Of a DNA stretch of 64,000 nt, positions 53,362 to 60,001 are shown piece by piece. The stretch is from assembly GCA_965541585.1 (NCBI GenBank), contig CBEUCH010000001.1:384001-448000 (forward strand). The letters are read 5' to 3'. Positions within the stretch are counted from its first letter, which is position 1. Each line of letters begins with the position of its first letter. This DNA is from an uncultured bacterium (GTDB taxonomy: Bacteria; Zixibacteria; MSB-5A5; UBA10806). Position numbers and translations under genes: made by a program. The notes under the pieces are model-generated. The model was given only the letters and a program-made list of their open reading frames with translations. It was not told where the DNA came from and ran no database searches.

Positions 53362-53818
53362 ATCAGCGTTCGGGCCACAGGAATTGCCGCCGGAAGAAGA
53401 GGAACTCGCTCCCGAGGAGCGGGAGATGCTTCTGAAGATCGGCCAGAAAGTTGTCGATATGCGTTTGACCGTTCCGGCCATACTCTTTTTAGAATCTGTC
53501 AAGCCGCTCAATTATATAGGCTCCCAGGTGATGGTATTTTTCGAGCCGTTTGTGGGAGCGATCTTCAGTTTCAGGACTGTACATATGTCCGGAATTGAGC
53601 TTAACGAATACGATCTTTTCCGGCGGATGATGGAGAAGCGTGATAATGTCGAGAGATTGCTGCAGAAAATAGAGGAGCTCGATGCCGTCCAGTACCAGAA
53701 GGAACGGGAAATAAAGAAGAAATATAAAGCGGAAAAAAGAGCCAAAAGAAAGCGTTTCTGGCGCAAGCTCCTGGGCCGGGAATTGCCCGAGGATACCGGG
53801 AGTATTGACAGAAAATAG
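53351..53818 (+). CDS. Hypothetical protein
   Basis: 155-aa ORF (PAILFLESVKPL...GSQ) overlapping the previous stop; basic C-terminus. Confidence 0.75.
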   Translation: MASKSAFGPQELPPEEEELAPEEREMLLKIGQKVVDMRLTVPAILFLESVKPLNYIGSQVMVFFEPFVGAIFSFRTVHMSGIELNEYDLFRRMMEKRDNVERLLQKIEELDAVQYQKEREIKKKYKAEKRAKRKRFWRKLLGRELPEDTGSIDRK

Positions 53819-53906
53819 ATTCTGCTCATTTTGATCGTCTAAAAGAATTATCCCGTAGGGGTCGGGAGCCTTTTACGAGCCTTCGGCGTGCGCACCCAAC
53901 AAGCGA

Positions 53907-54015
53907 TGTCATTCCCGCGAAAGTCCTACGGATCTGTAAGACGGGAATCCAGCGGGGAGCAGACATTTCTGGATTCCCAATCAAGTCCTACGGATCTGTA
54001 GGATTGGGAATGACA
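53907..54015. repeat. REPIN-like element (TGTCATTCCC..GGGAATCCAG / CTGGATTCCC..GGGAATGACA) carrying two 18-bp insertions
   Basis: Two inverted hairpins with terminal TGTCATTCCC/GGGAATGACA arms; inserts at 53924-53941 and 53986-54003. Confidence 0.85.
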
Positions 54016-54243
54016 CCCGGTTACCGCGAAAAAATATATTGACACCGATGGCGATATTCGCTTTTGTATATCAATGTCACCCCAGCCTCTGGCGGGGCGG
54101 CGGTTTCCCTCCCCCGGGATGATGAGACAAGGATGCTATGTGTGCGTTTGGAATGCTATTTCTTGGAGGCTATAGGCGCTAAGGAGTGATTTCCTTATTT
54201 CCTGATGCGGAGGAGTTGAAGGCCTTTAAAATTGGAGGATGAA

Positions 54244-55272
54244 TTGAGAGTTTTTAACATAGGATTAATTATAACCACTGTGATTATTCTTTCCTGCGCA
54301 ACCTCGCGAATATCCAATCTAACTCCTATGGCGCTAAGAGATGAACCGTTAATTGAATCATATAAAGATCCCGATTTTAGTTTCGAAAACTTTAGGACCT
54401 TTAGTGTATTTCCTAAATCATTCATAGATAGTAGTGCTCAGATACAAAATCCCATTTTGGAAAAGCAAATGCTATTTTTGCTAAGGAACTTTTTTGAAAT
54501 GAATGGGTACACATTTGTTGATATCAGCGAAAACCCGGATTTTCTGGTTACCATTGATGGTTCCTCTAATTATAAGGAATCTTATGTGCCCCCACAAACT
54601 TATATGCTCCCTAGATGGGTACCAGGGAAAACCAGTACAACATATGAAACAAATAGAGGGTCATTTAATTTTAGCAATTACGGCGATTATTCTTCATATG
54701 GATGGGGTAACTGGACTGGGAATTCTAGTTCTACTACCTATACACCTGGCCACATGTCTTTCGATTCCTATTCGATTGGCGGATATTATCGTGGATCCTA
54801 CTATCCTGTTCTATCTGTGCAGGCCTTCGAAGGAAGAGAATTCAAACAGATGTGGTATAGTATTGGAGTTGGGACGTCTCCAATTTCGGATTTACGAATA
54901 TCCTGCCAATTTGTGCTGGCCAACATGATTTTTGATGATTTTCCGCCTTATTCAAAGCTGCCAGACTTGAAGAACGAAAGCACAGGTGCAATTGGGATTG
55001 ATGTTGCTGTCTTAACGAATACAGGCAATAATTATTATCCATTTATTTCGGCTATACTACCATATTCACCGGCATCAAAGGCAGGACTCAAAAAATGGGA
55101 TATTATCCTGGAAATGAATGGAGTTTCTACCCTAAATAAGCCTTTTATAGAGACATATGAAATGTTAATGGGTGACGAAAGCACTATTATACGTCTGCGA
55201 ATAAAAAGATTGGATAAAGAAAAGGAAGTAGAGGTTAGAAGAAAGCCACGTAACGAAGTATATAGGGAATAG
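54244..55272 (+). CDS. Lipoprotein with DUF4136-like region and C-terminal PDZ domain
   Basis: GGAGG RBS before TTG 54244; lipobox ILSC; DP.F.F..F.TF; PDZ signature GAIGI..SPA.KAGL..D.I...NG. Confidence 0.75.
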   Translation: MRVFNIGLIITTVIILSCATSRISNLTPMALRDEPLIESYKDPDFSFENFRTFSVFPKSFIDSSAQIQNPILEKQMLFLLRNFFEMNGYTFVDISENPDFLVTIDGSSNYKESYVPPQTYMLPRWVPGKTSTTYETNRGSFNFSNYGDYSSYGWGNWTGNSSSTTYTPGHMSFDSYSIGGYYRGSYYPVLSVQAFEGREFKQMWYSIGVGTSPISDLRISCQFVLANMIFDDFPPYSKLPDLKNESTGAIGIDVAVLTNTGNNYYPFISAILPYSPASKAGLKKWDIILEMNGVSTLNKPFIETYEMLMGDESTIIRLRIKRLDKEKEVEVRRKPRNEVYRE

Positions 55273-55328
55273 GAAGGAATGCCCTCCGGGGCGGAGCGGA
55301 ACGTGAATTAAACTGAGGAGCGTAGGAA

Positions 55329-55829
55329 ATGGACGAATATAGAGAAACACGGTTGGATGATAATGATGAAAGAAACAAGATTTGGTATGAGATTTACAAT
55401 GAATCTACTTCATTGCTTGTAGAGATAGATAAAGTCCACCTAAAGCTAGGCGAATTAAGTTTGCCAAAGATGTCTCCGTTTCGGCTACGCAAAGGGTTTA
55501 ATTCCATAAAAATAGAAGGGGAGAGTATCTATCCTAAATTAAATAACTGGTTGAATAGAGCGAGGGATTTTACGGAAAATCCTCATATGGTCATTATGGC
55601 AAGAATCGATGACGAGATTGATAGAGCGGTATCATATTTGCATTATGTTTCTATCATACAGAATCGCATAAATACGTTAGAAATAAAAACGAATAACTTC
55701 CAAAGAGATCTTTACCAAGTGTGGTTACTCGTAAAACACCGAGAATCCTCTTTTTTTGCGCTTATCTTTTTTTCCGTTGGTATTATTATAGCGGTAGTTA
55801 GCACGGTTATCGGAATTATTCGCAGTTAA
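55329..55829 (+). CDS. Hypothetical protein with C-terminal TM helix
   Basis: 166-aa AT-rich ORF with RBS and hydrophobic C-terminus. Confidence 0.65.
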   Translation: MDEYRETRLDDNDERNKIWYEIYNESTSLLVEIDKVHLKLGELSLPKMSPFRLRKGFNSIKIEGESIYPKLNNWLNRARDFTENPHMVIMARIDDEIDRAVSYLHYVSIIQNRINTLEIKTNNFQRDLYQVWLLVKHRESSFFALIFFSVGIIIAVVSTVIGIIRS

Positions 55830-56149
55830 TCTTCTGCAATCCTTTGGTCTATACGAGAATTCCCTACTCACCAAAACATGGTCTCACCTCACCACCCCGA
55901 CCCGCTCCGCTACCACCGTCAGGCGGCTTATGTCGCGTTGCACCGTGCCGGTAATATCGAGGATCGATTTGCGGAAGATCCGTTCGCTGAACCGCCAGAA
56001 AGCCGCCCTCCTGGCCCAAAATCCGCAAATCCCCCCTTGATTTGCCTTTCCCGTCTGATTATTATCGAGTTCGTGGAAAATGGGTGATGTCGGGTTATAT
56101 GGCCGGACATGAATAAATGAATGAGGTGAAATAATACGGCGGAGGAACA

Positions 56150-57634
56150 ATGGCTGAGACTTACAAAAACTACATAAACGGTGAGTGGGTGGAATCGAAG
56201 ACGGGAGAGACGTTTGAGAATCGCAATCCCGCCGATACGAGCGATCTTGTGGGCGTATTCCAGAAATCCGGCGCCGAGGATGTCAATGATGCCATCACCG
56301 CCGCTTCGGAGGCATATAAGAAATGGCGTCTGGTGCCGGCTCCCAAGAGAGCGGAGATCATATACATTATCGGTCAGAAGCTTATTGAGAAGAAGGAAGA
56401 GATCTCTCAACAGATGACCCGTGAGATGGGCAAGGTCATCAAGGAGACCCGCGGCGATACGCAGGAGGCGATCGACATGAGTTTCCTTTACGCCGGTGAG
56501 GGACGCAGGATGTTCGGGCATACGACACCGTCGGAGATGCCCGATAAGTTCCAGATGTCGATGCGAATTCCTCTCGGCGTGGCGGCCATGATAACCCCCT
56601 GGAATTTTCCCATAGCAATACCGGCCTGGAAGATGATCCCGGCTTTAGTGTGTGGCAATACGTGCGTAATCAAGCCGGCCACCGACACCCCCGTTTCGGT
56701 TGTCAATTTCATGAAGGTCATGGAGGAATGCGGGATTCCGCCCGGTGTAGTGAATATGGTTACCGGTTCAGGTACGAGTGTGGGTGAACCGTTAATGACC
56801 GATAAACGGGTTAAAGTGGTGTCCTTCACAGGCTCGACCGAGACGGGACGCCGGGTCTCCGAAGCCTGCGCTTCCGATTTCAGGCACTGCCATCTCGAGA
56901 TGGGCGGCAAAAACCCCATTATTATTATGGACGATGCCGATGTCGATCTGGCGGTTGACGGCGCCGTCTGGGGCGGTTTCGGCACCACCGGACAACGCTG
57001 CACGGCAGCCTCGAGGGTGATCGTGCATAAGAGAGTATATAAACAATTTCTGGATGGATTCGTCAAGCGGGCCAAAGCGCTGAAGGTAGGAAACGGTCTC
57101 GATGAATCGATTGAGATGGGGCCGGCGATTTCCGAGAGCCAGATGAACACCGTCCTGGAATATATGGAGATCGGTAAGAACGAGGATAAAGCCAAACTGA
57201 TGTGCGGCGGCGGCCGACTTACCGGCGGCGATTACGATCGCGGCTGGTTTACGCAGCCGACAATATTCGCCGATGTCGATCCCCTGATGAGAATCGCAAA
57301 AGAGGAGATTTTCGGATCGGTGGTTTCGGTTATTCCATGCGATAATCTGGATCACGGAATCGAAATAGCCAACGATACGATCTACGGGCTATCTGCGGCA
57401 GTATACACCAGTGATGTCAACAAGGCGTTCCGGGCCATCCGCGATGTTTACACCGGCTTATTCTATGTTAACGCCTCGACAATCGGCGCCGAGGTGCATC
57501 TGCCGTTCGGAGGCACCAAACATACAGGCAACGGCCATCGTGAAGCGGGCACGGCCGCGCTCGATGTCTTCTCCGAATGGCGTTCTATCTATATCGATTT
57601 CTCGGGCAAACTGCAGAAGGCCCAGATCGACTAA
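56150..57634 (+). CDS. NAD(P)-dependent aldehyde dehydrogenase
   Basis: [31 protein letters not shown] and PFGG motifs. Confidence 0.96.
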
Positions 57635-57645
57635 TTCTAAGATTG

Positions 57646-57795
57646 ATCTTGATTTGCGTGTCACAACTTGTCCCTACGCCCATACGGGCGTCCGTATGGA
57701 CGGATCTGTAAGATTGTGACCGCATGCAAGATTGTTATATGTATAACATGTAGGGGCGTCTTACAGATCCGTAGGATATTGCAATACGCCCCTAC
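57646..57795. repeat. Cluster of REP-like palindromes with nested insertions between convergent genes
   Basis: GTCACAA..TTGTGAC hairpin, TGTTATA-TG-TATAACA, and GTAGGGGCG[18 bp]TATTGCAATACGCCCCTAC. Confidence 0.85.
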
Positions 57796-57808: not shown

Positions 57809-60001
57809 TTATTTCAACAAAACCATTCTCTTCGATTCAACCGTTTCTGCCGTCTTTAAGCGATAGAAATAAATCCCGCTGGAAAGATGGGAAGCGTCGA
57901 ACGTGATATGGTGAATTCCCGCCGGTCGATGAGCATCAAGCAACGTCTCGACCTCCCGGCCAAGGAGATCGTAGACGGTGAGCCTGACATCCCCCGGTTC
58001 GGGCAATGAAAAGCTGATTGAGGTGGAAGCGTTGAACGGATTCGGATAATTATGCTCAAGCGAAAACTGCTCAGGTAGGTTCTGTACTTCTTCAATGCCG
58101 GTTTGCGGGTCAAACCGCAAGATCATCAGTGAAGAAATGTCTGCTACGTAAATATAATTACCAGCCACAAGAACATCAACAGCCTGGCCGCCCATATAGT
58201 ATTCACCGGCAAATGTGGGGACTGCGGGGTCGGAAACGTCTATTATCTGGAGGCCGGAATAATAACATGCCACATATGCGTAACCGCCGGAGACGAAAAC
58301 GTCATAAGCACTACCCGGCGTATCGTAGTTTCCGGCGAGCGTCGGGTCCGTAGGCTCGGAAACGTCTATTATCTTAAGGCCGGCATATCCATCAGCCAAA
58401 TAAGCGTAATCGCCGATGGCGAAGACGCCTATATAATCTCCACCCATGTCTGGAGAATAATATCTTCCGGCGAACGTCGGGTTTGAGGGGTCGGAGACGT
58501 TTATTATCTCCAGGACGCCATCGGGATCAGATGGCCAGCAGACATAGGCGTAATTACCAGAGATGGAAACGTCAAAAATATCATAGGAGGTATCGTAGCT
58601 TCCGGATAATGTCGGATTTAAAGGATCAGAGACATTTATTATTCGGAGACCTGGATCCCAGGAATCAGCCACATAAGCGTAACTGCCGGAGACGAAAATG
58701 CCCACTGCCGCGCCCGGGGTATTACAACTTCCGACAGATCTCGGATTTGAAGGATCAGAGATATCCAAAATTTGAATACCAGGAAATGCGTCCGCCACGT
58801 AAGCGTAGCTGGCAGAAATAAAAACGGCATTGGCAGAGCCCGGCGTATCCCAGCTTCGGGTTATCGTCGGGTTTGCAGGGCTGGAAACGTCTATTATCTC
58901 GAGGATACCGTTGGGATTACGTGGCCAGCAGGCATATGCGTAACTCCCGGAGGCGAAAATGCTGAAAACCTCATAGGGGGTATCGTAGCTTCCGGCTAAG
59001 GTTGGATTTGAGGAATTGGTGACATTTATTATTTTAATTCCGCGCTCGGCATCAGCCATATATGCGTAATTGCCGGATACGGAAACGCCACGGGCATCGC
59101 GGGTATCGTAACTTCCTACAAGTAACGGACTTGACGGGTCGGAAACGTTTATTATCTGAAGACCGGAATAGGAATCGGCCAAATAGGCGTAAACGCCGGA
59201 AATGAAAACGTTACAGGAGGAACTCGGTGTATCGCAGCTTCCGGCTAAGGTTGGGTCTGAGGGATCGGAAACATCGATTATCTGAAGGCCATCTTCGACG
59301 TCGGCCATATAGGCATAATTGCCGGTGACGAAAACGCCATCGGCATGGCCCGGGGTATCGTAACTTCCGGCCAGTATCGGATTTGCCGGGTCGGAAACGT
59401 CTATTATCTGGAGACCGTGAGCCCACTTGGCCACGTAGGCGTAACCTCTGGAGACAAAAATACCATAGGCCCATTCCCCTATATCGTGTGATCCAACGAG
59501 CGTTGGATTCGAGGAGTCGGAGACGTCTATTATGTGAAGGCCCCCATCATTTCCATCAACCACATAGGCATAACTGCCGGAGACGGAAACGTCAAAGCTC
59601 CATTCCGGCGTATCGCAGCTTCCTGTCAATATCGGATTTGACGGGTCGGAAATATCTATTATCTGAAGGCCTGAATACCGACCGGTTACATAGGCATAAC
59701 TGCCCGAAACGTCGAGACGGCGTCCGCGACCCTGTAAATGAAGCTGGCTCAGGAAGAGCGGGTTTGAAGGATCTGAGACGTCGAGAATCAACAGCCCATT
59801 GTGGAAGGCACAGTAGGCGAAATCATCGACGACCTGCACGTCTCTAACGTTATTCCATAGTGTCGAGCCGATATACTCAACATTCTGGGCGAATGCAGAA
59901 CCGGCGAATGACGTACACAGGATCGCCACCAGCGAAATTGTAGATAATGGTTTTATTTTTTGCTCTCCTTGATGCTCACTATTCTTAATCTGCATATTCA
60001 T
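57809..60001 (-). CDS. LVIVD-repeat secreted protein with T9SS type-A-like C-terminal domain
   Basis: 14 repeats of VSGxYAYVAD..GLQIIDVSDPxNP; signal peptide ending AFA-Q; NYPNPFN..IYFYRL..KRMVLLK tail; exact start uncertain. Confidence 0.92.
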   Translation of the reverse strand: MNMQIKNSEHQGEQKIKPLSTISLVAILCTSFAGSAFAQNVEYIGSTLWNNVRDVQVVDDFAYCAFHNGLLILDVSDPSNPLFLSQLHLQGRGRRLDVSGSYAYVTGRYSGLQIIDISDPSNPILTGSCDTPEWSFDVSVSGSYAYVVDGNDGGLHIIDVSDSSNPTLVGSHDIGEWAYGIFVSRGYAYVAKWAHGLQIIDVSDPANPILAGSYDTPGHADGVFVTGNYAYMADVEDGLQIIDVSDPSDPTLAGSCDTPSSSCNVFISGVYAYLADSYSGLQIINVSDPSSPLLVGSYDTRDARGVSVSGNYAYMADAERGIKIINVTNSSNPTLAGSYDTPYEVFSIFASGSYAYACWPRNPNGILEIIDVSSPANPTITRSWDTPGSANAVFISASYAYVADAFPGIQILDISDPSNPRSVGSCNTPGAAVGIFVSGSYAYVADSWDPGLRIINVSDPLNPTLSGSYDTSYDIFDVSISGNYAYVCWPSDPDGVLEIINVSDPSNPTFAGRYYSPDMGGDYIGVFAIGDYAYLADGYAGLKIIDVSEPTDPTLAGNYDTPGSAYDVFVSGGYAYVACYYSGLQIIDVSDPAVPTFAGEYYMGGQAVDVLVAGNYIYVADISSLMILRFDPQTGIEEVQNLPEQFSLEHNYPNPFNASTSISFSLPEPGDVRLTVYDLLGREVETLLDAHRPAGIHHITFDASHLSSGIYFYRLKTAETVESKRMVLLK

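Follow-up and report, generated by a model that had tools for sequence, protein, structure and literature searches.

The closest known kind of element to the one described here is the small dispersed repeat (SDR) of the Nostocaceae, reportedly 21–27 nt in size (Elhai et al. 2008, Genome Res 18:1484). SDRs are dispersed units of ∼20 nt with no known transposase that insert precisely and at defined positions, SDR5 for example inside HIP1 (cited in PMC4390886, PMC2884548, and PMC3116915). Ever since the description of the cyanobacterial SDRs, it has been a question how such ∼20-base repeats spread in the absence of a known transposase. Here, we analyzed an 18-mer, termed U1, in a 64,000-nucleotide stretch ("the window") from an uncultured bacterium of the Zixibacteria (contig CBEUCH010000001.1, positions 384,001–448,000), whose own genome, G000, comprises 3.52 Mb on 40 contigs. 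U1 is a real, precise insertion without target duplication, and it is very probably a mobile insertion element. New here are U1 and three sister families (U2–U4) as abutting mini-hairpins with (A)TAC and GTA(T) loops, each insert of which closes into a paired dumbbell.

Four further systems are relevant for comparison. GTAG-tagged repetitive extragenic palindromes (REPs) and REPINs are short palindromic non-coding repeats that occur with REP-associated tyrosine transposases (RAYT, also TnpA-REP) (PMC3733652, PMC8266576). The NTS/SRM repeat is a CGTC-tagged REP (dRS3) that is associated with the GIY-YIG nuclease Ssn (PMC11893778). Members of the IS200/IS605 group transpose as single strands (PMC8266576) and form circular intermediates (PMC6006769). 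Mitochondrial GC clusters measure down to 18 nt (GC18), merge and nest, are flanked by AG or ACT direct repeats, and have no known mobilizer (PMC4478555).

The window holds four copies of U1, each placed in a host repeat, and one sister unit (G001 and higher denote other genomes, C contigs of G000, and L single loci):

53907–53952, plus strand: host 1 (of U1 copy 1), a CGTC-type REP or NTS hairpin (Ssn nuclease recognition repeat) of the 8-nt inner type
53924–53941, plus strand: U1 copy 1, 18 nt, with halves TCC-TAC-GGA and TCT-GTA-AGA
53969–54015, minus strand: host 2 (of U1 copy 2), a CGTC-type REP or NTS hairpin of the 9-nt inner type, inverted relative to host 1
53986–54003, plus strand: U1 copy 2, 18 nt, with a T.G wobble in its second half; this is the commonest form
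57660–57720, no strand assigned: host 3 (of U1 copy 3), a short GTCACAAC palindrome
57671–57713, plus strand: U1 copy 3, a variant of 19 nt with a CTAC loop, split by a U3 unit nested in it
57679–57702, plus strand: U3 nested in U1 copy 3, a 24-nt sister unit with loops ATAC and GTAT, its register ambiguous by the dinucleotide CG (2 nt)
57750–57795, no strand assigned: host 4 (of U1 copy 4), a perfectly palindromic GTAG-tagged REP
57759–57776, minus strand: U1 copy 4, 18 nt, identical in sequence to copy 1

Intact copies occupy three loci of the window, compared with a mean of 0.09 matches in shuffled sequence. Copies 1, 2, and 4 lie where a first-pass annotation of this DNA had placed them. 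Copy 3 had been given a start at 57672, a boundary with no empty junction in G000 or the fetched loci; the true start is 57671, and for 57671–57713 one fetched locus provides an exact 18-nt empty junction. The annotation had also claimed that deleting the units restores intact hosts, and indeed exact 18-nt empty junctions exist in G000 for copy 1 (one), copy 2 (three), and copy 4 (four). The empty form of host 1 agrees with the NTS consensus of PMC11893778 at 27 of 28 positions. Host 3 after removal of copy 3 reads GTCACAACTTG joined to TTGTGAC. A target duplication is absent at all four copies, and the hosts are unrelated repeats (NTS/CGTC repeats, GTAG REPs, and other palindromes), both as proposed. 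The host 3 repeat also occurs upstream of a RAYT-type gene in G001 (L132), and a composite resembling copy 3 with its U3 was found at G000 C6:53536. No family was matched in an Rfam scan of the window.

Filled and empty alleles document the insertion. For 14 of 35 U1 sites in G000, an exact 16-nt empty junction is present elsewhere in the same genome. At the window locus itself, a contig from sequencing run X4 that covers 53753–53923 (with 15 other letters) runs directly into the right flank of U1 copy 1, and a second X4 contig over 53968–54115 lacks exactly the 18 bases of copy 2. Because these are two contigs of a relative, the orthology of the empty alleles rests on their flanks. The X4 strain, ∼91–95% alike, has the same host repeats there, empty of copies 1 and 2. 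G002 was considered as a further empty allele; it carries different repeats at this locus, and therefore none is given. In contigs of relatives from runs X1 and X5, 53866–54030 is replaced by a single short REP. Among the sequencing runs that hold window-like DNA, no RNA run is listed, and all represent relatives with small shares.

U1 has also entered coding DNA, lengthening proteins by six residues. At G000 C17:58024, a decayed U1 lies in frame just before the stop codon of a single-copy gene with a Meth_synt domain. An ortholog was present in eight relatives among 13 searched, and seven of the eight carry no unit. The C terminus reads LLNG-SYGSAG in G000 and LLNG-SCGSVR in G002 (both filled) and LLNG-stop in G003, G004, G007, G009, and G012; G010 is likewise without the unit, and the gene of G001 shows an exact 18-bp gap and no target duplication. 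In a family of secreted proteins from related metagenome contigs, a hexapeptide (SYGSVG-type or SYRSVG) stands between KIF and WG in the signal peptide of 8 of 32 N termini and is absent from 24. The filled members are scattered over the family tree (FastTree, 7 changes, no better than shuffles), a pattern in which repeated insertion and mosaic recombination are not separable. On one metagenome contig, U1 is found in two tandem paralogs (L102 and L103) at one shared codon boundary, with the two units inverted relative to each other (SYRSVG and SYGSVG). Outside protein-coding genes, a degenerate tRNA-Gly copy next to a small GIY-YIG gene has its T-arm split by U1, and an intact tRNA-Gly 300 bases away represents the empty form. 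The first-pass remark that a length divisible by three would preserve reading frames holds for the two gene families; 18 nt as a rule does not, given U1 variants of 19 and 20 nt and sister units of 16, 17, and 24 nt.

All genomes considered here are metagenome assemblies and the unit is palindromic, features that would suit a library adapter or an assembly artefact, which the first-pass annotation had itself raised. Such an origin is extremely improbable, because U1 is found in lineages of one phylum only, across independent data sets, accumulates substitutions, is common to orthologs of two species, and keeps the reading frames of proteins. Orthologous alleles, some filled and decayed and others empty, in effect refute it.

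The copies are numerous, as the annotation had expected. G000 contains 26 loci at ≤2 mismatches to copy 1, five of which are perfect palindromes. A pattern that allows loop variants (≤2 substitutions) yields 41 loci, 38 of them intergenic by a long-open-reading-frame mask that leaves 9.7% of G000 as intergenic DNA; the reversed-genome control gave 0. Sites with clean ends number 35, nested forms counted. Across the phylum, U1 is present in 17 of 285 genomes, patchily over five families (controls 0). Exact asymmetric forms gave 52 matches in metagenomes and 35 in the GTDB collection, 29 of the latter in records titled Zixiibacteriota, uncultured bacterium, or uncultured Ignavibacteria. The six exact matches in other phyla (four Chitinophaga, one Jatrophihabitans, and one Dictyobacter) were judged chance from their context, and two in viral contigs were treated as chance, neither lying inside a host repeat. 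The typing of sites described below accordingly excluded 13 loci judged chance: the six named records and seven metagenome or viral loci. Tandem arrays, expected under rolling-circle copying, were not seen among the G000 sites listed.

Because many copies share host and register, part of the copy number comes from the spread of filled hosts. Taken further, a few old insertions could have been fixed in host repeats and then multiplied by host mobility and gene conversion, with no mobility of U1 itself today. The copies of G016 in one REP type, the decayed copies common to G000 and G002, and the nested copy 3, which a ∼92% alike X4 contig apparently covers free of gaps, fit such passengers. We nevertheless regard this explanation as improbable: the asymmetric unit occupies 23 or more types of site, among them unique coding DNA and a copy derived from a tRNA, and in the X4 strain the host repeats of the window locus are present but lack the unit. 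Each refuting condition that the first-pass annotation had named for its proposal of a short non-autonomous mobile unit came out in favor of the proposal, including the presence of empty host sites and of orthologous empty alleles.

U1 consists of two abutting 9-nt hairpins, TCC-TAC-GGA and TCY-GTA-RGA, which are inverted halves without a spacer. The left loop may be TAC, ATAC, CTAC, or GTAC and the right loop GTA or GTAT, and the halves vary independently. A scan for abutting hairpins found 25 loci with the loop order TAC then GTA, two with the reversed order, and 0–8 for six other loop pairs. The sister families share the (A)TAC and GTA(T) loops on other stems; together, U1–U4 span 16–24 nt and nest in one another. 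In G000, U2 has 17 loci (12 nested in U1, two collapsed, and three free), U3 four copies, and U4 five; U2 is present in seven of the 285 genomes.

For each of U1–U4, the deletion best supported by empty junctions closes into a circle with a stem of 6, 5, 8, and 5 bp, respectively, capped by (A)TAC and GTA(T) whatever the loop length. Thus, the two ends of the insert are jointly complementary to its center in every family. U2 closes as a dumbbell at 16, 17, and 18 nt, and the insertion register of U2 and U3 is ambiguous by 1–2 bases. The commonest U1 form has one G.T pair in the dumbbell stem. The TCT/AGA variant keeps the dumbbell pairing but has two mismatches in the long palindrome. That two-hairpin units close into dumbbells suggests a single-stranded circular intermediate.

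Two hairpin-bearing tRNA arms resemble parts of these units, which may be chance or a clue to their origin. The variable arm of tRNA-Leu(TAA) equals the GTAT-loop hairpin of the U3 right half and of some U1 variants (intact at G000 C15:40448, partial at C3:6820), and the anticodon arm of tRNA-Arg(ACG) has 9 bases in common with U1.

The independent variation of the U1 halves and the frequency of perfect palindromes (5 of 26 loci) are also what a symmetric addition de novo could leave behind. Here, a primase-polymerase, a terminal transferase, or a templated reverse transcriptase would cap both ends of a break with the same 9–10-nt hairpin before they are joined. One and the same asymmetric form, however, prevails across genomes from different families and orders, and on inspection its polarity relative to the host arm is biased; moreover, the halves of U2–U4 are unequal and not reverse complements of each other. 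An origin by such addition therefore has little probability.

The sites of U1 are biased in both junction and structural context. In the 23 site types of the asymmetric form, some of which are related to each other so that not all are independent, the junction is purine–pyrimidine in 18 (intergenic background 0.23) and non-C–pyrimidine in 22 (background 0.39), and the base 5' of it is never C. Inverted repeats of ≥7 bp span 24 of 35 empty junctions, compared with 188 of 1500 random intergenic positions (12.5%). Among the hosts are three palindromes that, in relatives, flank RAYT-type genes (L132, L136, and L144). The first-pass annotation had proposed a targeting of hairpin DNA; hairpins are indeed preferred but not required, because two coding sites lack an evident hairpin. 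Both orientations occur, as had been claimed, and do so at three host positions, but they are not equally common with respect to the host arm: by inspection, the asymmetric unit mostly has its TAC half first when at or 3' of the host loop. A rough automatic assignment of arms (loose clustering) gave 12 on the 3' side, five on the 5' side, one central, and three none.

NTS hairpins harbor other micro-inserts as well. A fifth kind of ∼21 nt, unlike U1–U4, consists of two GAA-triloop hairpins in the same orientation (G000 C1:265756, C7:131823, and C11:84417; L233 of G007). Two unrelated inserts, a ∼32-nt double hairpin with TC...GA ends and a GATC center and a ∼20-nt single hairpin, lie at the NTS registers of window copies 1 and 2 in L224 of G003 (∼938–970) and L233 of G007 (∼1215–1245).

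The inserts may also arise by break capture, which needs no dedicated transposase: hairpins would be nicked by a structure-specific nuclease (either an Ssn-type GIY-YIG protein or a hairpin nuclease of the host), and a stable hairpin or dumbbell oligonucleotide released from another copy would be ligated in during repair. Unrelated micro-inserts in the same NTS-hairpin registers in G003 and G007 are in line with this, in which case the position may be dictated by the site and not by the insert. G000 has eight small GIY-YIG genes, three of which have U1 in their flanking repeats, two of these being ssn-like (C3 and C7); the flanking repeats of the G003 Ssn genes carry U2. This distribution fits hitch-hiking too. 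The SsnA cut lies a few bases upstream of the NTS (PMC11893778), but the position of U1 is the loop or the 3' arm. Moreover, Ssn homologs show no association with U1 (10 of 17 U1 genomes versus 141 of 268 others), none was found with the query used in G011, which is rich in U1 copies, none of 12 GIY-YIG loci in G001, G016, and G029 has a U1-type unit nearby, and the two coding insertions have no evident hairpin host. On balance, we consider break capture unlikely.

Small GIY-YIG genes have a further peculiarity at G000 C5:213780–214244, C6:95130–95900, C6:210100–210718, and C14:53400–53850, where they are flanked by partial tRNA or tmRNA copies. Short perfect hairpins, several of which have GAA triloops, take the place of arms in these copies.

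We propose instead that U1 is a gene-less insertion element of two mini-hairpins that moves as a covalently closed single-stranded dumbbell, opened and joined at a purine–pyrimidine nick by an enzyme, most likely an HUH protein of the Y1/RAYT type. Taken as a whole, this proposal is in our judgment evenly poised between right and wrong. Its dumbbell intermediate, to which the geometry of the inserts points, stands at about the same even level; that a Y1/RAYT protein does the joining is a more tentative suggestion. The unit would be excised or copied from single-stranded DNA as a circle of 16–24 nt in which the end junction pairs with the center. It may then be recognized through its conserved GTA(T) and (A)TAC loops, and exposed single-stranded DNA, chiefly at hairpin loops or immediately 3' of them, would receive it by strand transfer. 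The copying of Ssn cassettes or of filled host repeats could then spread it further as a passenger.

HUH transposition makes no target duplication. HUH enzymes act on folded single-stranded DNA (PMC8266576). As the known class for this substrate, and with Y1_Tnp genes in all 17 U1 genomes (four in G000), an HUH Y1 protein is, by its chemistry alone, our first guess, but its target rule would have to differ from those of the characterized enzymes.

Several observations weigh against the proposed dumbbell transposition by a Y1/RAYT enzyme. No U1-type unit was found near RAYT genes at four loci in G000 or 30 in five relatives (∼1.5 kb on each side where the contig allowed), and the co-occurrence with Y1_Tnp is uninformative because 260 of 285 genomes of the phylum have such genes. 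TnpA-REP cuts at C–T or C–A steps (PMC8266576). With a pre-junction base that is never C and U1 at the loop or the 3' arm, neither this cut nor that of SsnA fits, and the link to RAYT nucleases drawn in the first-pass annotation is not supported here. Unlike in IS200/IS605, there is no conserved 5' tetra- or pentanucleotide, the left flanks differing across the 23 site types, and the relatedness among these types bears on the junction rule as well. The dumbbell of U3 and U4 has empty-junction support at one and two sites, respectively, and for U1 alone it is trivial, because two equal abutting hairpins always close in this way. In ViennaRNA, the commonest linear U1 gives a single long hairpin (−4.4 kcal/mol), copy 1 (TCTGTAAGA) hardly folds, and U3 forms two hairpins. 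Finally, the evidence from sequencing runs consists of contigs, among which no circle or excision product was observed. As to the folding, the energy model underrates mini-hairpins with GNA loops. Such hairpins are unusually stable (PMC13037366).

Other candidates for a mobilizer fared no better. IS110 was rejected on one marginal partial match in G000 (E 3.8e-4). As for an autonomous element with U1 halves as its ends, G000 has seven left–right pairs of lone halves within 5 kb, none with two clean intergenic ends; the sole intergenic pair represents parts of other units. None of the four genes neighboring the U1 copies in the window resembles a mobilizer:

54232–55272: DUF4136-PDZ lipoprotein
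55329–55829: 166-amino acid protein without a Pfam match; a relative's contig in run X1 skips it
56150–57634: aldehyde dehydrogenase
57809–60001: LVIVD-repeat protein with a secretion C-terminal domain

Two further stretches border the first pair of hosts. Just upstream of host 1, at 53858–53886, lies a GTAG REP-like stretch with an apparent decayed U4-type insert. Downstream of host 2, a promoter-like stretch (54030–54140) has a paralog at G000 C9:3330–3400 and variable hairpin inserts in relatives.

Possibly, though with more doubt than assurance, U1–U4 represent an undescribed mode of transposition, in which a covalently closed single-stranded mini-dumbbell of 16–24 nt is read through its loops and inserted by an enzyme that requires no homology in the target and leaves no duplication. 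If so, in bacteria hardly any self-similar mobile units would be smaller than these, and U2 and U3 inside U1 would be hyperparasites. An enzyme that inserts an 18-base unit scar-free and without target homology would have technical interest. The literature searched, with most subscription papers outside its scope, held no description of U1 or of the dumbbell rule. To the question left by the SDRs, U1 contributes exact ends from orthologous empty sites, an R–Y junction rule, four families that share their loops, and a predicted intermediate that can be synthesized, which together make it testable in vitro with a handful of candidate proteins.

Compared with the known systems, REPs are the hosts of U1 and not its family. 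U1 resembles GTAG REPs in being short, palindromic, and non-coding, in having GTAG inside its commonest form, in its intragenic in-frame copies, and in the presence of RAYT genes in the genomes. The GTAG of U1, however, is internal instead of terminal, many copies have GTAA or GTAT in its place, the two halves face outward (CTAC...GTAG), and U1 flanks no RAYT gene and has junctions other than those of REP/REPIN-RAYT systems. Hosts 1 and 2 are of the NTS type, and the ssn genes on C3 and C7 of G000 are flanked by NTS-type repeats, but U1 itself is not an NTS and does not co-occur with Ssn across the 285 genomes.

With IS200/IS605, U1 has in common hairpins at both ends, the lack of target duplication, and a polarity bias, and its geometry would suit a single-stranded circle; it differs in having no transposase gene or cargo and in being far shorter. 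Its two abutting 9-bp halves correspond to the terminal inverted repeats of miniature inverted-repeat transposable elements, which, unlike U1, have a target-site duplication and a length of 70–300 bp; no autonomous insertion sequence with the same ends as U1 was found in G000. The double-hairpin elements of mitochondria are very short hairpin elements. To these and the mitochondrial GC clusters, which were compared by description only and are organellar, U1 is similar as a very short nesting hairpin.

The SDRs, likewise compared by description only, come from another phylum. U1–U4 differ from them in their length of 16–24 nt, in entering R–Y steps in hairpins of other repeats instead of one fixed octamer, in nesting, and in the two-loop dumbbell rule. 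Like the SDRs, however, U1 is a dispersed unit of ∼20 nt with many copies, no coding capacity, and a precise insertion that is evident from filled and empty alleles.

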